Below, piece after piece: positions 6,375-60,944 of a stretch of 64,000 nt of DNA. Position numbers and translations under genes: made by a program. The notes beneath the pieces are model-generated. The model did not search any database, was not told the DNA's origin, and saw only the letters and a program-made list of their open reading frames with translations. Position 1 is the stretch's first letter; every line of letters begins with the position of its first letter. Origin of the DNA: Azolla caroliniana (lineage: Eukaryota > Plantae > Polypodiophyta); assembly GCA_043228905.1 (NCBI GenBank), contig JBHGNT010000009.1:744001-808000 (forward strand), in the 5' to 3' direction.

Positions 6375-6407
<33 letters not shown>

Positions 6408-6454
6408 CACACACACACCCACACCCACACACACACACTCATTGCCTCACTGAA

Positions 6455-6524
<70 letters not shown>

Positions 6525-6553
6525 ATTGACTCACTGAAAGTCTGAACTCACTG

Positions 6554-6584
<31 letters not shown>

Positions 6585-6606
6585 ACACACACACACACAC
6601 ACACAC
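6360..6606. repeat. Compound (CT)n/(CA)n microsatellite in the promoter/5' leader of the APRR2-like gene
   Basis: Three CT-then-CA blocks, two separated by a repeated ctcattg.ctcactgaa spacer. Confidence 0.95.
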
Positions 6607-6709
6607 CCGCTCGCTCACCTCAGCCAAACACACATACTCTCTGTGTGTCCCCCTCAGGTTCTTCATCCAACTATGCCACACTTTCGGTTTCTGCGGTGAT
6701 GCAGAACAC

Positions 6710-9700
6710 ATGACTGCCTTTGCAGAGATTTTGGGGAAGTGGAAACATTTCCCCAAAGGCCTCAGCGTCCTGGTGATCGACAGAGACAAAGAATTCTTGG
6801 AAGATTTGAGCTGTAAATTGCAAAGCTATGGTTATTTTGGTGAGTACGAGGTTCTCTATTTTTGAATTTTAAAACATGTTGCGCCCCCCCTACATTTTTC
6901 GTGAATTCGAATGTTCTCTCTCGATCAAGATCTTGAAAATCTTAGCAATACTCTTTTTTTTAGCTTTTCTTTCTTCAGTTTTTCTCTTTTGTACAAAATG
7001 TTATGAAAGTTGTGATCTTTATCTCTTACTTAGGCCATCTAGTGTGGTGAGTATTGACTTTTTGTTTGAAGAAATTATTTTGCAAAGCTTTTCTTTGGGA
7101 TACACAAAATGTTAAGAAAAAAATCTGTATAGCATCTCTGGCCATCTTGTCCATTGAGTATAAATTGTTCCCTTTTCAAGATCACAATTTTAACATTCCT
7201 TTTGTTGTATATGCATTTGAAGAGAACTGCAAAGTTTTTTCTTTGTTCAGAAAATGTTAATGAAACCTGTAACATTAGTCTCTTTATAAGAAAATCTGTA
7301 ACATTAATCTATTGTATCATATTGTGTGCTGAGTGCTGAATTGTCAACTTTCACCTTTTTTTTAATTCCTTTAATTGTTTTTTTGAAGAAAACATAATAA
7401 TAATTTCTTAGATCATCTTGTGTAGTGTATTTTGCATTCCAAAAATAAGCTCATCAATGTTTGGTATCAAAGTCTCTAGACATTTTTAGCAATCTATTCT
7501 TTTATGATTCATTTAATGACCTCTCTTTTAAATCTTTCTGGTCTATATAAGATATAATGACCTCTTCTTTGAACCTTTCTACTACTGAGCCAGATATAGT
7601 GATCTCTTCTTTGAACGTGTCTAGTCTTAAGGCAGATTTACGGGCCTGTTCTTTGAATAGTTAATTCAGCTACCTAATGTTTAAATGTTTCTAGGCTTAT
7701 GTCATATATAATGGCCTCTTTTCGAGTGTTTCCAGTCGTGAGACAAATATAGTGACCTCTTCTTCGGAAGAGAAGATGCAGAGAGTTGGAACCATAATAT
7801 ATGTAAAAACATAATGGAATGAGTTGGGCTGCACAAATGACACTTTGGAAAAGGAAACAACGCATAAATCCTGAGCACTATGTGTGATGTTGCTGGCTGG
7901 ATGGAGGAAAATAGCACTTACGCGATGTAACAAACTTATGCCACAGAGTGGGAGTCGAAAGATCTCCATGTATGAATGCACGGAGATTGGAGAAAGTGCC
8001 ACAAGCAGATATGTGCTGCCTGGAGTTAAATAGCACATACAAGATGTAATAAACTTATGCTACAGAATGGGAGTTAAATATCTCCATTTGTGAATACTTG
8101 GAGAATGGAGAAAATAGCACAAGGCAGATATTTGATCCTCAAACTTCCAGCTAAGGAAGTCAAAGGCTGTTCTTGCCCAGAAAAGGACCATGAAAGTCAA
8201 GATCTATTTGGATGAAGACATGACTCCGACTCAAGTGGCACACAAGAGGGAATATGTGCTGCATATTATGGCAGTGCAAAAAGAAGGGAAATGTAGCATA
8301 TAGAGATAGAAGGGTTATTATAATGAAGAACATTGATCCACATGATGGTTAAAGACCTATCAGAATCCCCCCTAAAGTTGGTGGTATGGAATTGTGACGG
8401 GGATTTCCATCCAGATGTAGGCATGTTTGATGAAAAATTCAAGGATAGAGACATTGCTGAAACACACAAATGTGAAGGAAACCATTTACTAGGGTACAAA
8501 TGGGAGTTAAGCTGTGATTGATCGTCGTCAACCACACACTTTAGGGGACACCAGAGGCTCCGAATGTGTAGCAGTACACTTTAGGTGACATACACCTCAC
8601 ATGGGGAATCACCTTATCTGCCACTATATGTGGCATCCTTTTAGCAGGAGATTTCAATACACTCAGTACAAAGAAAACCATGTTTTCTATGGCATAAATG
8701 AACCAATGCACCTAGAAATTGGAGCCAAGGACTTGGATGCATGAAGATCTGCAAAGTCAAAGGGGAAAGAAACCATAAGAGTATAGAAAACAATTGTTTG
8801 CTTTAGGGGGCATTTATGAACTGATCATATAGCATGACTTATCATGCTAGCAAAAATTAGATGCCTTGACATGTTAGAATAACAATAAAAGAGCAAGAAG
8901 AATGGATTATCTAATTGAATCTCCTAGCTTGATACGAGATATTCAAAGTTTTGTTGTCTCAGGTAAGTTTCTTGGTGTGGCAATGGAATTTGTGCCTAGT
9001 TTGCTTTGTCCATATTTGCAAATGCTCTAGGGCTACACCATTTCAGTATCTACCTCAGAATCTGAAGTATCAGTTCACCTGAGAGACTTCTGGATCATAC
9101 AACAGTGCAATCTTTGAAGCTCTTTGGGGCCTAAATCTTCACAGCCCCACTGTAAGACATCAGTAGAGAGCTTGCACGAGTGTTGCAAACCTCAACAGTT
9201 CTAGTATTTCCACACACTCTAGCGGCCATCAATTGTTCACATAACACTGCCTTTTGCTGGGTAGTATGATGATGACTGTTAGAGTGAGGTCACCCTATGC
9301 ATCATCCGTCATAGACAGGCAAAAGGATATTGACAGATGATATGAAGGAAGCAACACAGTCATTTTGCCAAGTTAACTGATGAATTGTGTCAACTCTTCT
9401 CAGGATAAGACATCAATAGGGATATTTTGTACATGGGTTTGTTGACATAAAAATTGTTGATTTTGTCAATGCCTATGATCAGGTGATTGAAGTTCCTTAA
9501 ATTAAAACTATACATGTGATGGGCATTTCAGAGTGGCGGAATACAAATATGTGTGCATTTTCATCTCACTTTATCACTTTTATTAGAAATGCTCCATTTC
9601 CTAGGGCTGATTATTTAGAAACATGATCCTTTTCTTCGCTAGACTGAAGTAGGCAGCTTTTATTCATTTCTTTCATTGATCTTCAAGATGAGAAATCATC

Positions 9701-12700
9701 ATAAGATGAATACAGTGTTGAGTTCATAGCTCATTTTGGCCATTTAGAGACATTAGAGTATGTGTCTTTTTTACCTTGTTTCTTTGCAGAGGGTTTATCT
9801 TTTGTCTTGCACATGGCCCCAACATATCGGGCATGTGTTTGCCTCGTAGACTAATGCACCAATGTTGGATGTTTGCTATGTAGGAGATGCCACTTTTTAA
9901 AGTAAATTTCTGTTTAAAAGGAAGTCTTACATGCTGTTGACTTTATTCTCTGTTCGTGTTTTCAACCTGAGAGTCTCTTTTGAGTCCCATTTATATTTAT
10001 TTGGAATAAAAGCTTAGGCAAAGGTCTGCGCAGATTTAATGCATGATGGAAATTTGAGCTGTTTCTGTTTGATGATTGTGGTTTTCCACAGTTACAAGTT
10101 TCTCCTCAGGATGTGAAGCATGTGCAGCACTGGCAAATGATGAACAAACATTCCATGTAGCATTGGTTGAGGCAAGAAAACTTCACTTCACAAATTTGGT
10201 TGGTTGTATTTACATTCGATGTATTTTCTGAAAATGCTAGATTTTGTAAATGTACATTCAGGCCACTGAGAGTAATGATGTGGATACTTGCAAAGCATTG
10301 GAATTCTCTAGGAAAATACCAACAATCAGTAAGTTCGAATCCAATGTATATTAGCATGATTTTGGAGGAGAATACACAGATAGCTCAGAAGTACTTACAT
10401 TCTTTTATTATGACAGTGATTTCTGGGATTGAAAACATGTCAATAATGGTCAACGCAATTGCGGTAAGCTTACAATCACAGTTCTACATATTCTAGATCT
10501 CTATTTATGCAAGATATGAGATGTTTCACTTTTAGTATCTAGCTGAACTGTTTAAGGTCATTGCCAAAAAACTCAGTTAATTAATTGCTAGATTATAAAA
10601 TTTATCAAAAAGGACGTTTATGTGAATGTTTAAAGAAAGTGATTTTCTTCCGAGCAGCTTGGAGCAGTGGAATTTTTGTTGAAGCCCCTGTCTGAGGACA
10701 AACTGAAGAATATATGGCAGCATGTTGTCCGGAAGGTTTAAATCAAATTGTAATTCACTGTTCATCTTTGATAATTATAAAGTAATAGACCAAGTGATCT
10801 GAAAATTTCACAGGCTTTAGATTCAGGAGACAGTTTGCAACCTGGATACCTACAGCCAAGAAAGGATGATCCTCATCATATGAGTGATTCAGATGAAAGT
10901 GGCATTATGAGAGCTGGAAATTTGGATGAAACATGTCATGATAACGGATCCCAGTCAACACAACTTTCAGCTAGTTATGACAGGTTTCCAGCACCATCCA
11001 CTCCCCAGCTAGAACAAGGTGGGAGACTAGACGAAAGGCTCGATGAGTCACCTCGATCTCATGATTTAACTGGTAGCGTTAATGGAAGGTCCAATGCAGC
11101 ATTGTCTATATCTAGTTTGTCAAAAGAAAACTCAAAGGAGGTACCTGTGTCAGTACTCGATTCTATCAATGTGAAGAAAGAAGCGAATTATAGTGATCAG
11201 GATGAAATTACCTGTTGTGCAATACCAATGCTTGAATTTGCTTCGCACAATGAAGATGTGGATGCCACTCCGACAAGTGATACAAAGGAACAGTGTGTCT
11301 TGAAAGATGCAAAAGACTACAATGGCTTGAAAATTGACGAAAGGGCATCAGCTGAGGTGAATAAGGATGATAATGAAAATCAGTTGGTCGGGGAAAACAT
11401 AACAGTTCAGAAAGATGTTTTCAGAGTTAGTTTGAACTGCATGAATATAGATTCAACGAGTTCTTCACAATCTTTTAGATATGAAGACCTGAAGGATGGT
11501 ATCAAAAGAAAATCAAATGATTCCCAGAAGACTGGAAAACAAAAGCAATCAAATCAGGAAAAGAAGTCAAAGGTACCATTTCTATGTGATAATTTAAAAT
11601 TATTGTGTACTTTGATATATGATATTATATTTTGCCACGAAGGTGGGTAGCAAAACCACATCATCATTTTGTAAAGGCTATAGAATATCTTGGAAATGAA
11701 CAGGTTATTCCATCCAAAATACTAGAGAAAAGGTTGATGGGCTGACAAGACATAATGTAGCCAGTCATTTGCAAGTAATTTTGCTTTATTCAACATTTTC
11801 TATTTTTTTTGTATTCAGGCTATACCCCAGTGGCGAGTCGTATTTCTTATCACCCCATAGACTTGGGTTCAAACCCTATCAATGTACTATCTTAGAGGTT
11901 GATTACATGATATTATGTCTCCTCAGACAACCGTACTGAAGCTACATCCTTTTGGCCTTTCTTTTTTAATATTTGCTGTTGTCCTTTGCTTTGATCTTGA
12001 TCATACTGCTCCTCTAAATCAATATTGTGGACAGATTTCTTGATAGATACAGTAAGGCATACTCTTGTAAACTGGATTGTAGTAAAATTTTGACCCAGAT
12101 CCATGGGTTGTGTTCCCTTATTCCAAAAGGTTGTGTGTGGTAGTAAGCGTTTGGTCTAGTAGTGGCCTATCATTATGATGAATATGGCATATAAGATATT
12201 ACTTAAGATGATTAATGGTAGATCCTTGTGTACGAGCATACCCCTAGGTCATTAATTCATTACTCCAACCTCACTTATCGCTATCTTTTAGGCGGTAAAT
12301 CTCTTTCATTCCTTTTATTTGCTCGCTCACAATATGAAGAAAATACAAGGCCACTGACCAGTGTAAGAACATAAATGATGCAGCACAAAATGCAAATAGA
12401 CAGAAAAGAGTTAGAATTAGGGCAAGAAACACAAGGGAATAAAGCTCCATCTCTTCTGATGAAAAATGCCTAGAAAATTACAGCAGCATAAATTGCCAAA
12501 GAAGAAGCTCTTTCATTTGACAAATATGACCCACCCAAGTCCTTTTTGCACACCCAAGTCCCTGTTCTCTGCTTTCACTCTCGTTATTGTCATGTTGAAC
12601 ATCTGTGAATGCTAATAAATTGTTACCATCGTATTTCTCTCTCTCGACCCTGGCACCTCTCCGGATCAACACCAATTACTCATGGCTACATCTATCTTGC

Positions 12701-14526
12701 CTTTTATTTTATTTTTTAGGTAGATGAAAAAAGAAAACCTTCTTTTGCTACTCAACGTGTACCCTTTCTTACATTTTACATTTCATAGGTGGTTACCGTC
12801 TTTTAGAGAAGTTAAATAAGTAGTCATTGGATTTGAGTTTTCTTAGTTATTTGCATTTGGGCTTGTTAACGATGAGGAGGGAGAACCTGCTTATTGATAT
12901 ATATATATCATGTTTTTTAATGACAATTTATCATGATATTTCATATGTAGTCCAATTTGACATGAAACATAGTTAAACTTAGTAAAACATATGACGCATC
13001 CCAAAGGTATAAACAACACTTGTAAATTGTACATTCTGCAATTTGATGAATAAAAGATGCATTATGGGTCCAGGTGTGGAGTTTATGTAGCTCTTCATAG
13101 TTCCTGAATCTCACTATCATGTATTATGATGTGCATGTTCCAATATGTTATCATCTCATTACATCTCTTATTAAATTCTTGTAATGCTACATTAGAGTCT
13201 CAATAATTTGTGTACTATGACATGCATATTAATATGTTATCATCTCATTACATCTCTTATTTGGATCCTTGTAATGAAACAAGAAGTTATATTACAACAA
13301 GGGTTCACAACATCTAACTGTGTAGCCCTTTTATTATGCTCAGAAATATCGGTCACAGCAAAAACATCATTTTGGAAAAGAAATGGAAGCAAATAATTGG
13401 CGCCAAAGTAAGATTACCTGTGGGAAACCATGGAATAAGGCAGGCCAAAACAAAATGTGGATCTGTCCACAGCTGCCAATGATTTACCCTTGCCCACCTC
13501 TACATGTATGGGGTCATCCAGCAGTGGATAACTCTACCATTCATGTCATGCCACACCACAACCACTTAATGGTAATTCACCATTCTTTTAAAAATGTTTT
13601 TTTTGTAAAATTAGTCCATCAAAATATTTCAAGATTTTTCCACATTTTTATCTAATATGATATGTTGGTGTTTGCTAGGTACCAGGAATATCTTATGGAC
13701 CACATATGGTATGCATATCACTATACAGTTAAATTGTTTCAGATTAAGTTTAATGTTTTATACTTCTTCTATTATGGAACACGTGGTATGCATGTCTCGA
13801 CAATCGGAGTAAGGTTTTTTGTTTTATTTCTTGCTATTATGAATCACATATGATATGGATGTCATCCCATGATTTTGGATTTAAGGTTTTCCGTTTTGTT
13901 TATTTCAATGATAGATTACATATAGTATGCATGTCACTCCACAATGAAATTTAAATTGTTTCAGCTTAGATGTTATGCTTTATTTATTAATTTCTAGTAT
14001 TCTTTCGTTTTTTGTAGTTTTTTGGAGCCCCCCGAGGGTATGATCAAGGAGGTCTAACATTTTCCACCTTGGACAACATTGACACCTTGGATGTGCCAAA
14101 TCGATATAGAAATTCCACATTTCTAGATATCCACCCAGTAATAGTTATATCTAGAGAAACACAATAAAATCCCTAACTCGTTGGGTATTGATCAGAATGC
14201 CAATATCTCGTTGTAGTACAAATTTATTACTATATAGGGGTATTCTGGTAAATACCCAAAAAGCTAGGGATATTTGTTGTATCTGTTTGCAAGCATTTCA
14301 ACGTTTGTGATTGCATATGCCGTCTTTGTATTACATTGGTTATGTTTATGACAATATTTGTGGTGAATAACAGCCTAAGGAGCTATTAGATGCAGCAATC
14401 AATGAAGCATTGAATGATCCGTGGGCACCATTACCCCTAGGTTTGAAACCGCCTTCGATGGAAAGTGTCATGGCTGAGCTTCAACAACAAGGGATAGATA
14501 CTTTGACCTTGGATATGCAAGAATGA
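6710..14526 (+). CDS. APRR2: APRR2-like pseudo-response regulator (receiver + GLK-type GCT box); GARP/Myb exon disrupted
   Basis: Phase-consistent exons 6710-6839 ([24 protein letters not shown]), 10092-10171 (..TFHVALVE, Glu at the phospho-acceptor position), 10262-10328, 10417-10463, 10658-10735 ([26 protein letters not shown]), 10814-11572, [11643-11774 broken Myb], 13344-13571 (KYRS...PPLHVWGHP), 13679-13708, 14018-14137 (..DIHP) and 14374-14526 ([41 protein letters not shown], the GCT box). 563 aa if the Myb exon is skipped. Confidence 0.9.
8150..8800 (+). mobile_element. Decayed LINE (ORF1 end and AP-endonuclease start) in intron 1
   Basis: [13 protein letters not shown] (ORF1-like) near 8195, then [10 protein letters not shown]...DI.ETH (ORF 8333-8521), the APE N-terminal WN..G / ET motifs. 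Confidence 0.55.
11643..11774 (+). pseudogene. Frameshifted GARP/Myb (SHLQKY-class) exon of the APRR2-like gene
   Basis: Pieces in different frames: V..., then [24 protein letters not shown], then [14 protein letters not shown]. The exon is 132 nt against 141 for the canonical one, and the spliced frame hits TGA at 11697-11699. Confidence 0.85.
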
Positions 14527-14957
14527 ATATGAATCCAGCAGTAATTTGTACATTTCTACCTTGTCGAAAATCTTTCACAAATAGTAGACTACACTTTATG
14601 TGTCTTTATCCTAAAGCTTTTGGGGTGGAGGATGCTTGTTGTACACCCATATAAGAAACCATGTTGCAAAGAAAAGCTTACATGGCTTCATTGAATACTC
14701 TCTAGTGTTAGAATAAGATGATTTATGCATCGGTATGGGCATAACTTCAACTTTTTGACTGCACGTTTTATAATTGTTGAATAAAAAATGGGCACATGGC
14801 ACTTTTGCAAAAGTGCTAATTCTCATACTGAACCAAATAATGGCGTATACTGAGGCATTTTTATTCATGAGAACAAATTTTATTGAGTTTCCATTTACTT
14901 TGTGAAGGATTTTTGTATTTGTAAGGAAAGAGAACTCTAATGGGAATGATAGACCAT

Positions 14958-16333: not shown

Positions 16334-18260
16334 TTACAAAGAGGTAGGTATGCTTTGAGGCTCGTTGAAAATGTTAGTGGGGTCGATCCTTCTTTTAATT
16401 TGCACTAATTTGGCAAAGTTAGGGCCAAAGTAGTGTTTCCCGGCAACGACACCATTGCCCAACTGAAGGTCTATGTAGTTGACATAAGCAGCCCTAGAAG
16501 GGTAGTATGAAACATAGGGTGCCATGTAACTATACAACCCGTTGAGCCATGCTATCAATGCTTGGTCAGGAGAACCATCTTCACTTGGCCACACAGCTTG
16601 ATATTGTATCACAAAAAGGTTTCGTCCCCTATGTGGAAAAGCTATGGCACTCGAGCTTATCTTATTCATCACTCCCCCGTATGGCTCAAGTATCACCCAT
16701 CCTCGTGTGTTCTTTTGTAGTATGTCGAGTGCGCCTCCAATCGCTTGCTTCGTTAGGGGCTTCTCCACATAGTCTGATGTAGCTTTGAAGTAGCTCAGGC
16801 TCGCTTGTCGCTTGATCAAGAGTGAAGTAGTAGGGCCAGACAATCCCGCAATGCTCATCACGGCCTACAAAATATATACAACAATCATGAGTCACGACAT
16901 CATAGAGTATTAGTAATTATCACACATACATATATCGTTTGGATTGAAGTCTATATGAGGAAACAAATAAACAAACCTTATTAAAGTTATCTAGTTCAAG
17001 ACATATTAAAGTTATGAATGTTAGTGAAGTGAAAGCAAGGCATTTTACTATTCCTGTTATGTATTTCAAACATCTGAGATCTCTATGTGTGTGTGTGTGT
17101 TTATTTGCATTGAAAAGAATGCAACCATTCTATTCCCTGTACATGTGAGTGTGTCTCAGGATTTAGGGTTTGTTTACCTGTGCCCAATTACCCTGCGCGC
17201 ATTCTGCAGCCGTCACTCCAAGCTCAGGGAAAAGAGACTTCATCAAAGCCACGGTTTGATCGATGGTACCCCAGTACTGGCCATAGAAAGAGGAACCGAT
17301 GTCTGCACGCCCTGAGGAATCACTTATAGCGGCCATGTACACAGCGATGAAAAGCTCGGGTGGGGCCAGCGATGGAGCCACGGTCTGCCACTTATACACA
17401 AGGTCGGTGACGGAACTCTTTCCGGTCCTCCAGGCATGGAAGGTAGTGAGGACCAAGGGAACAGGGAGGAGCTTCAGTTTCCAAGACACTACAATGCCCC
17501 AACTCCCTCCCCCGCCGCCTCGAATGGCCCAGAACAGATCCTTGTCCTGAGATGCCACACTCCTGATGAAAGTTCCGTTGGGGGTGATGATCTTGGCATC
17601 TAGGATGTTGTCCGCCGCGACCCCGTACTTGCGGGAGAGCATTCCATATCCACCCCCCATGATGTGCCCTCCCACACCGATTGTGGCGCAGGTCCCCGCC
17701 GAGAAGCCATAGCCACTGCCAAGTTTAGGGGAGCTAGAGATGGCATAGTAGAGCTCCCCTAGCCTTACCCCTGCCTCCACCCAAGCTGATTTGCGGGCCA
17801 CATCAATGGAGATGGTGTTGAGGTTCATCAGGTCAATGATTGCAAACTTGCTTGTGTTATTATTACCAAGTATTGTAGAGGAGATGCCCTCATAGCTATG
17901 GCCTCCACTACGGACCCTGAAGGCTAGATTAGAGGCTCTTATGCAAGAATAAGAGGATCTTAGCTCCTTTTGCGTCTTGGGTAGTATGATGGCCGAAGGC
18001 TTGGGGACACCCGGCTCCGTGAACCGAAGGTTTTGGATGGAGAATTGGAGGAGGGTGATGAAGGAGCCTGCATCAGATGGTGTGGTGAAGTTTGTTATGC
18101 CTTTTTTAGTCAAGCAAGAAGCCAAGCTTATGGGCTGGGAGGAGGCCACTAGTATGAGTCCGATCCCATTGTTGTAATTGCTAGATGACAAGGAGATAAC
18201 TACTACTTGTAGAAGAAGAAGTACTAAGATTATGTGATGAGGTCTATTTTGGTGATCCAT
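16334..18260 (-). CDS. Berberine bridge enzyme-like FAD-dependent oxidase (secreted), 2 exons, ~537 aa
   Basis: Exon 1 18260-17178, GT-AG intron 17177-16865, exon 2 16864-16334. Signal peptide, QNLRF, RVRSGGHSYEG (FAD His), GTCATIGVGGH (FAD Cys), DLFWAIRGGGGGSWG, AYVNYIDL and YFGPNF..LV.IK..IDP.N.F...QSIP. Confidence 0.95.
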
Positions 18261-18330
18261 TTTGGTGTAATCAATCACAAGAAGATCTATATTGAACCAC
18301 ACCACACCTCACCTCCCAAGTGTGGTCTTG

Positions 18331-57290: not shown

Positions 57291-58399
57291 TGGTAGGTCC
57301 TGGATCGCCTCCTCAACTGTTCGATCCAACGGAGTGAACTCCTCTGTTGTTCGGTCTTGGATTGCAATAACTTTTCTGTTTATTGATTATCTTGTGTATT
57401 GTTGTGTCTAATCTTGTGTATTGTGGAATATTTTTGTGTATTGTTGTTGCCCATAGCCATCTTAAATACTTGATTTTTTTCCTGGAAATTTAGGGTTTTA
57501 ATATGTCCAGCCAAATGGAAGGGGAAGAAGGGTGTTTAGAATTACCCCTCAATGATCATAACAATAGGGATGATGCTATCAGGACACAACAAGCCATACG
57601 AAACTATTGGGCAGAAACAAAAAGGAAACATCGTCAATTGTTGAAGGATACGAAAGCCACACTCAGTAAAGGTAAGGATAGTTTAGCTGAGAATGTAAGT
57701 AATGCGACTACCATCATAGAGAGAAAGGTTGTAGACTATTTCAATGTTCAAACCAAGCACATCAGCAATGAAGAAAAGAAGGTAGTACTTTATGGAATAT
57801 GTAATGATCCATCGATAAAGGACTTAGTTGATTGTGATGGTCTTAATGCAAACATATCATCTATTTTAGTAAATAATCTTCGTAATAGTTTCGTATCCAT
57901 GAGCAGGTCAGAAGATGATCCTGTCTTAAAAAGGTCTAGTCTAATGATGTTACTTAATAGTGATGTTGACAATATAAACATCAGTGAGCTATCTAAAGTA
58001 ATTGGTGTTAGTAGAAAAACAGTGTACAATACAATGAACCGTATAATTTCCTCGGGTGAAGGAACTAGTCTACTAAAGCTAACTACAAGATGTAAGCCAA
58101 TGACACCCATAACATTTGAAATCAAGGATGTAATCACAATGTTTTGGACTAATGAGAGTAGGGTTTCACCCAATAAAAAGGATTTATGTAGGAAACGTGT
58201 TGGAAGAAATCAATACGAGGAGCATCCCATTCATCTTCTTGATGTACCTCAGGTATTTACATTTATCTCAACATTTGTTTTGACTCTACACGGAAAGTTA
58301 ATTAGCTCAATTAGTAGAAAAGCTAATTAGCTTATCAGTTACATTTACCTCTGTTAGCTACTAGGATATCTACTACATAGGTAACTGGCTACTCTCAAT

Positions 58400-58981: not shown

Positions 58982-60944
58982 CCCCTTTATTACGCAGGTC
59001 GATTTATTTATTAGGTTCAAACGAATGCATCCAAATATCAAAGTTCAACTACGAACATTCGAGTCTCTTAAGCCACACTTTGTGAGACGCTTAAAGGATC
59101 GATACACATGTTGTTGCATTTACCATGTACAGATGGGTTTTCTTAAGGACTCTGTTAATCTACTACGTCACCATTCGAGTCTCTTAAGCCACACTTTGTG
59201 AGACGCTTAAAGGATCGATACACATGTTGTTGCATTTACCATGTACAGATGGGTTTTCTAAAGGACTCTGTTAATCTACTACGTCACCATAGCGCATCCC
59301 TAACTAATACAGTTTGCACATGTGGGTGCCCAATCTGTCGATCAAGCCTGCAAGAGGAGTGTAAATCATCTGAGCACGTTATCTCTTCCATGAGTTATTT
59401 ATTAGATTCAATATTGTGTTCGAGAGAAACTGACGCTATCTTCCATATTCATAAATGTCTCACGGGTTTATGTCAAGATTGTGGCCCTAAATACTAGTTC
59501 GGGATGGCTGAGTGCAAATCTGCGGCAACCCCGCTCGATCGCAATCTCAAACTAGATGCGAACTTCGGCACCAAAGCGTGTGAGCCAACTCAATATCAGA
59601 AACTCATCGGAAGTCTCATCTATCTCACGATCACTCGACCCGATCTCAATTATCCGGTCGGTCTCCTTAGCCAATTCATGCAAACATCGCGTGATGCTCA
59701 CTTGGATTGCACTAAACGAGTTCTACAATACGTGAACAGCACAATGGATTTCGGCATCCTCTACAAGACCGCGATGCCAATACGACTCAAGGGGTACACA
59801 GACGCCGATTGGGCCTGCTACAAAGCCGGTAGAAGATCAACCTCCGGATTTGTTTTCTCCCTCGGCAGCGGAGCAATATCCTGGAGTAGCAAGAAGCAGC
59901 CTAACGTCGCTCTTTCAAGTACGGAGGCGGAATACAAGGGCGCGGCAGTGGCCGCATGTGAAGCCGTATGGCTCAAAAGGATACTAAAGGATCTGGGCGT
60001 ACCCATCAAGGATCCGACCTCCCTTTACTACGACAACATGAGCAGTATCTATCTGGCTCGGAACCCGGTGTTCCACGCGCGGACAAAGCACATCGAAGTG
60101 CACTATCACTTCATCCGAGAGCGTGTTCTAGCTGGCGATGTCGACCTACAACACATTAGCACCAATCTTCAAACGGCCGACATATTCACTAAAGCCTTAG
60201 GAGCCGACAAGCTATGGAAATTCATGACCGATCTAGGACTGACGATCCCTGACCTACCAAGCTTGAGGGGGAGTACGGAAGACACTACACAATAACGCAT
60301 AGATTCCACTACGCAATAACGAGTAGATTCCGCACTACGCAATAACACGTGGATTCCACAACCACGCAATGAAGCCACGAAACCGCGAAGCTGCGAAGAG
60401 CCGATCTACCGCGCAAAGTCGCGAAGAGAGACACAAGCCGAAGCATAGACTTTGCAACTACGCACAACGCAAGCTAGAGCACGGATTCCGCAACTCCGCA
60501 TAAATGCGAGTCGACGCGAACTCCGAAACGTCAAAACATATTTCGGATACCGTCTGAAACTGACCCGACTTGAGCTTGAGGGGGCGTGTTGAGAATCAAG
60601 CTCAACTTGGTCTAGTGTGTGAACTCACCTTGAGAGTGAATAGACACTCCAACGATCAAGAGTCACCATTATGTCACCACTTTGTATTCTAGCATTTAGT
60701 ATGAGTCATAAAATCATATTCTATGACACATAACTTATGAGCTTTCACATTCCCCATGCTCCATGAGTCTTGTAGTTAATGAAGAGAGAGGGTGACTATA
60801 TAAAGCACCCTCCTCCCACCTTGTATGATGTCAAGTCTTTCTCCTTTGTTAATATACTTTTACCTTGCGTATTCTCTGTGTCTTACTCCTTGTCTCTCTC
60901 ACTCTCTCATACACACACATAACTCACATCTCTTCCGCTTAACA

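Follow-up and report, generated by a model that had tools for sequence, protein, structure and literature searches.

The stretch of Azolla caroliniana DNA analysed here, 64,000 nucleotides (nt) long (GenBank assembly GCA_043228905.1, contig JBHGNT010000009.1, positions 744,001 to 808,000; hereafter the window), carries an APRR2-type gene of 11 exons at 6710-14526 on the + strand. Its seventh exon, which encoded the Myb/GARP DNA-binding domain, is broken and is skipped in transcripts. The gene model was built by inspection of splice sites and all coordinates are window positions on the + strand. The features are as follows.

6710..6839, +: coding part of exon 1, with the start and the receiver N-terminus (contig joint 6838-10091)
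10092..10171, +: exon 2, receiver, with Glu replacing the phospho-acceptor Asp and a GC donor (splice sites, spliced contigs, alignment)
10262..10328, +: exon 3, receiver (splice sites, spliced contigs)
10417..10463, +: exon 4, receiver (splice sites, spliced contigs, comparison with L011)
10658..10735, +: exon 5, receiver C-terminus (splice sites, spliced contigs, comparison with L011)
10814..11572, +: exon 6, a 253-codon linker with a basic patch at its end (splice sites, spliced contigs, comparison with L011)
11573..13343, +: intron removed from the mature mRNA, 1771 nt with GT..AG ends, comprising old intron 6, the dead exon and old intron 7 (X6, X7, X11)
11643..11774, +: dead Myb/GARP exon with losses of 5 and 4 nt and a TGA at 11697-11699; transcripts leave it out
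13344..13571, +: exon 8, which closes the Myb helix and holds the proline-rich region including VWGHP; some 25 amino acids (aa) under orthologue length
13679..13708, +: exon 9, 30 nt against 60-63 nt in the paralogues (splice sites, spliced contigs)
14018..14137, +: exon 10 (spliced contigs, translation)
14374..14526, +: exon 11, GCT box and stop (spliced contigs, identity to orthologues)

The Myb exon measures 132 nt, compared to 141 nt in both paralogues of this genome and 47 codons in 7/7 fern orthologues. Two lesions account for the difference: 16 nt instead of 21 lie ahead of the HHHF codons, and 2 nt instead of 6 lead from ILE to KVDG, although the exact bases deleted cannot be placed. 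An mRNA that includes the exon hits the TGA at 11697-11699. Because the introns on both sides are phase 0, skipping the exon keeps the frame, and the skipped mRNA has 1692 nt of coding sequence with a single terminal stop, giving a product of 563 aa that consists of pseudo-receiver, linker and GCT box. An initial annotation of this DNA had described losses of about 5 and 4 nt and a TGA in the exon, phase-0 flanks and an in-frame 563-aa receiver plus GCT product, and all of this is borne out. It had also described the ten other exons as open with good splice sites; they are open, but they are not untouched, since the proline-rich region has suffered in-frame losses. The exon 2 donor is GC rather than GT. 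The resulting GC-AG intron 2 (10172-10261), where the C5 paralogue has GT, is used in all three RNA-like runs described below. A Pfam scan of six single exons gave no family match, the pieces being too short, and a search, skipping common words, for a repeat inserted into old intron 7 that might have been the trigger returned the self match only. By eye, the end of exon 9 and its donor region recur in several near-copies downstream of that exon (13690-13950); they may be remains of local duplications tied to the short exon 9.

Eight of the 22 listed sequencing runs were compared with the gene, four over 6400-14900 (X6, X7, X9, X11) and four over 11470-11800 (X3, X15, X17, X18). The status of X6, X7 and X11 as RNA is a guess of the tool used, though every one of the nine spliced joints of the skipped form occurs in their contigs. 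The 1771-nt GT..AG skip itself, joint 11570->13342, is found in all three of these RNA-like runs, which come from three studies, and one X7 contig of 2084 nt spans all ten retained exons. Among the joints listed for the contigs of these runs, none enters or leaves the Myb exon and none leads to an AAG acceptor at 11732. The transcript data are assembled contigs in which rare isoforms may be hidden, and absent RNA-contig cover over the dead exon was not counted as evidence.

The lesions are also present in independent DNA and in related alleles. X9, which behaves as DNA, is identical to the window over 11650-11820 and one X3 contig (record 6) has 0 differences over 11590-11800. A second X3 contig (record 7) has 15 differences from the window in the 211 nt round the dead exon. 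X15, X17, X18 and X3 record 7 have no insertion at either lesion and therefore have the -5 and -4 losses in common. Further damage has been added: the acceptor AG at 11642 is gone and 1 nt is missing at 11739/40 in X18 and X3 record 7, X17 lacks 27 nt from 11660, and X15, which L011 and P0125 match, reads as the 27-nt loss of X17 plus a 27-nt duplication. Counted in the old frame, distinct substitutions in the dead exon amount to 9 nonsynonymous (N), one of them a stop, and 2 synonymous (S), with p values of 0.018 versus the receiver exons and 0.063 versus exons 4-6. The Myb domain is nearly invariant across orthologues; the dead exon is still decaying in the related alleles.

Two side observations concern these alleles. 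For the His codon of SHLQ (11766-11768) the window has CAT, where X17 and X3 record 7 have CGT among the differences listed and X15 and X18 have TGT; since CpG decay of an original CGT on both strands would fit this pattern, the His of the window may be a chance reversion. Beside the window type, X3, X6 and X11 contain a divergent second gene copy (6621-14900) that has no counterpart in the assembly; one reading is that these are hybrid, polyploid or mixed samples. The second copy also appears to use the skip junction.

Selection on exons 4-6 can be dated relative to the loss of the Myb exon. The metagenome contig L011 is an X15-type allele; since it too bears the dead exon, all differences between it and the window postdate the loss. 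L012, a 21-residue match (E 1e-5), was set aside. (Because X19 and X20, on record as RNA, lay outside the comparison, skipping in the L011/X15 allele is outside what the data show.) Between the two, exons 4-6 differ by 23 N and 22 S changes, a ratio of nonsynonymous to synonymous rates (dN/dS) of 0.28-0.40 by transition weighting (binomial p 3e-5 to 2e-3 for constraint). As both alleles carry the dead exon, this ratio argues that selection outlasted the loss of the Myb exon. The contribution of receiver exons 4-5 is 1 N and 5 S, and the pseudo-receiver shows the strongest constraint here; linker exon 6 has 22 N and 17 S (dN/dS 0.34-0.49), and its -6 and -9 nt indels in L011 are both in frame; over all the non-frameshifted alleles, 3/3 coding indels seen are in frame. 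Judged by protein identity, the best-kept part is the GCT box (residues 514-555), with 74-86% identity to five fern orthologues compared to 24-42% for the linker, and among the differences listed for the run contigs over 6400-14900 the GCT exon has 2 S and 0 N. The initial annotation had named the junction 11572->13344 and the dN/dS values as the checks to make, and had preferred a skipped exon to a pseudogene or an assembly error. Each of these expectations holds up: the junction is found in 3/3 RNA-like runs, the spliced frame of 563 codons is open, exons 4-6 stay below 1 after the loss, the X3 and X9 contigs match and four further alleles share the lesions. Its alternative AAG acceptor at 11732 does not, having no joint in the three runs.

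The initial assignment to an APRR2/GLK-like family is refined by a midpoint-rooted tree of 40 proteins, made of 3 from this genome and 37 of the 120 matches listed, with no angiosperm GLK. The closest named relatives among the matches listed are fern proteins of Pteridium (P0003), Adiantum (P0005) and Ceratopteris (P0006). The window gene and seven fern proteins form an 8-row clade (support 100/100), sister to a 7-row clade with seed-plant APRR2 (support 100/98), and the gene is the only member of the fern clade in the assembly. The Myb domain is retained in 7/7 fern orthologues found. The orthologue P0007 of Adiantum nelumboides stops soon after the Myb exon and has no GCT box; this short end is probably intron read-through, an annotation artefact. 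A domain layout is given in the accessible text of PMC11366661, and the Asp-to-Glu change of the APRR2 receiver in that of PMC6518804. The Asp of ARR1 aligns to Glu in P0001 and the window residue is the same, and the C-terminal GCT box is in place, while the GARP/Myb domain is broken and skipped. The gene is thus an APRR2 orthologue by descent and not a canonical APRR2 protein.

A search of the assembly found a single place for the gene and no second copy, and a GCT search returned only two other loci. The C5 paralogue (659 aa) is open with receiver, Myb and GCT box, the C10 paralogue (534 aa) is open with Myb and GCT box, and both proteins fall in a different clade from the window gene, which is therefore no fresh duplicate decaying beside its twin. 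No receiver exons were found in the ~15 kb upstream of the C10 paralogue (L009, G000:C10 ~6654500-6657800, - strand), where a copia-type open reading frame (ORF) lies. Its loss of the receiver is complementary to the loss of Myb in the window gene.

Taken together, these data identify a real APRR2 variant without DNA-binding domain. We hypothesize that the predicted DNA-blind protein uses its GCT box to pair with the intact paralogues and dampens them, a tentative reading by analogy to which we give a probability of roughly 45%. The phase-0 flanks would have made the Myb exon removable and, as soon as the exon was broken or left out of the mRNA, frameshifts and losses of splice sites could pile up at no cost. 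The skipped mRNA would be translated into the 563-aa protein, and the basic patch retained at the new junction suggests a nuclear location. Pairing with C5 or C10 is suggested by pepper, for which the accessible text of PMC12967849 reports that GLK2 and PRR2 interact and that deletion of the GCT box abolishes or weakens the interaction; a lowered output of the paralogues would follow from the available part of PMC3664756, where factors with a dimerisation domain and no DNA-binding domain behave dominant-negatively. The decoy or dominant-negative regulator suggested by the initial annotation is a candidate role; the same build would also suit a sink for GCT-binding repressors or a co-activator. 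A broader proposal, that the sole fern APRR2 orthologue turned, by retirement of one internal exon, into a dedicated DNA-blind regulator of the chloroplast programme under GLK/APRR2 control, C10 lost the receiver and the three members split the ancestral domains among them, is possible but more doubtful.

Several observations weigh against such a role. Protein searches with exon 6 gave fragments called on the DNA of relatives, and the seven exon-6 versions comprise three without frameshift (the window; L011/P0125; the second copy in X6/X11, with partial cover), two with inferred frameshifts and two that are ambiguous. P0123 and P0124 each come from a contig of 2452 nt, presumably one and the same, and share diagnostic changes of X18; as judged from the proteins, a deletion of 5 nt near 11240 accounts best for them, and one of 10 nt near 10960 for P0126. 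P0122 departs from the frame and continues as an unrelated tail at a point where P0125, a member of its cluster, reads through, and P0127 is a partial version. Two related alleles thus appear, from these protein fragments, to have lost the gene and probably qualify as pseudogenes, which means that the rest of the gene can be lost. In the window gene, the proline-rich region is ~25 residues shorter through in-frame losses and exon 9 is half of paralogue length, both undated, and the end branch in the tree is long (0.68) and flagged. Synonymous divergence between the window and L011 (9-12%) exceeds intron divergence (6.4%, 34/533), so the low dN/dS is partly inflated, and nonsynonymous divergence (pN) of 3.4-3.6% versus 6.4% in introns (p 0.02-0.04) indicates moderate constraint only. 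L011 ends short of the GCT exon, and the figures for selection after the loss cover exons 4-6. Finally, the effect could be positive because the GCT box also binds the repressors BPG4/RPGE.

One explanation for this erosion is stepwise gene death, in which an APRR2 orthologue made dispensable by C5 and C10 lost its Myb exon first and drifts toward a pseudogene while still transcribed. The inferred exon-6 frameshifts, the eroded proline-rich region and the linker dN/dS point that way, as do the 19 N and 11 S among the differences listed for the second copy in X6/X11, contigs that are possibly mosaics of two copies and on which we do not rely. Yet the dead-exon alleles differ by so few replacements in the receiver exons, exons 4-6 remain constrained, the three coding indels of non-frameshifted alleles are all in frame and a full-length spliced contig exists. 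The window gene has an intact transcript frame and departs from neutral evolution, and we regard its ongoing death as unlikely. Still less plausible, indeed very improbable, is that the broken exon reflects an assembly error, a mutation private to the plant that was sequenced, or an exon rescued as a short Myb remnant. We rejected assembly error given the match of X3 and X9 (11650-11820) over the exon and the sharing of the lesions by relatives, four other alleles having them in common, which also speaks against a private mutation. An in-frame 14-codon remnant would be possible from 11733, and contigs drop rare isoforms, but no joint to 11733 occurs in the three RNA-like runs and X18 and X3 record 7 carry an extra -1 nt that destroys the frame of the remnant.

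Alternatively, the protein may act positively, either as a sink for GCT-binding repressors of the PEL/RPGE/BPG4 type, or by co-activation or scaffolding when an intact partner brings it to DNA. The accessible texts of PMC10774444 and PMC12967849 make the GCT box the binding site of BPG4/RPGE, the former linking the box to homo- and heterodimerisation as well. Four loci of PF09713, the BPG4 domain, pass the cut-off in this genome, classified to family only, and the additive action of pepper GLK2 and PRR2 reported in the available part of PMC12967849 also fits. The proline-rich region, termed a transactivation domain in that same text, is shortened, which counts against the co-activator version only and leaves the sink version untouched. 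We consider a positive function, too, to be rather unlikely, and the dampening of the paralogues remains our preferred reading.

The small single-domain size is part of what defines a microProtein. Having no DNA-binding domain, a retained dimerisation domain and intact relatives in the genome, the window protein resembles the small interfering peptides (siPEPs) and microProteins, such as ZPR, MIF and the splice form PtrSND1-A2 in the accessible text of PMC3664756. Unlike these it is not small, with 563 aa and two conserved domains; the loss concerns an internal exon and is genomically fixed with its remains in an intron, whereas an alternative isoform would come from a gene that is still live. 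In addition, the gene is the only one of its clade in the assembly, and its interference is putative. Compared to APRR2/PRR2 of Arabidopsis, tomato and pepper and to the fern orthologues, the protein shares the Asp-to-Glu pseudo-receiver, VWGHP and the GCT box, while its mRNA is without the GARP/Myb domain and its proline-rich part is shortened. GLK proteins have motifs of the types AREAEAA, VWG(Y/H)P and PLGL(R/K)(P/S)P, according to the available part of 10.1101/2023.01.23.525199, in which MpGARP8 (MpGLK) is the single GLK of Marchantia. The window protein has VWGHP, PLGLKPP and the GCT box in common with these, but its AREAEAA-like motif is degenerate and the GARP domain is missing. With the PEL/RPGE/BPG4 repressors it possibly shares the target surface, the GCT box; those belong to another family, PF09713, and could be partners rather than analogues.

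Protein searches (444-2000 aa, 139-443 aa and representatives) returned no full-length Myb-less protein, which is weak evidence. No report of a Myb-less fern APRR2 was found in literature listings and the openings of abstracts, subscription papers aside, although the supplementary trees of the Marchantia preprint could list the gene. The principle of interfering factors without DNA-binding domain is already known; this case and its route, by which the sole member of a clade retired an internal exon at the genome level, appear to be new.

GLK/APRR2 factors set chloroplast development and are targets of crop engineering, and the GCT box is where the brakes known for them, PEL/RPGE/BPG4, act. An APRR2 that occurs in nature with pseudo-receiver and GCT box only offers a ready test of these domains alone, among them the pseudo-receiver, which is poorly understood. 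It further illustrates clearly how a transcription factor can shed an internal domain when an exon is retired, and the related alleles have reached different points on the way: gene kept, exon further decayed, whole gene broken. If the proposed role is true, the dead exon in the intron records the birth of an interfering factor and the sister alleles show renewed loss. Annotation pipelines would probably label such a gene a pseudogene, or Myb-based family surveys miss it.

Elsewhere in the window, an ORF with a FAD_binding_4 domain at 17163-18305 (- strand), which we take to be berberine-bridge-enzyme-like, ends ~2.6 kb downstream of the APRR2-type gene. A cluster of gypsy- and copia-type long terminal repeat retrotransposon ORFs, several of them long and open, occupies 31310-55977. 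It is followed on the + strand by a 275-aa ORF (57503-58330) with weak helix-turn-helix matches under the Pfam cut-offs and a 263-aa ORF (59504-60295) with no family match, which together are possibly a DNA transposon.

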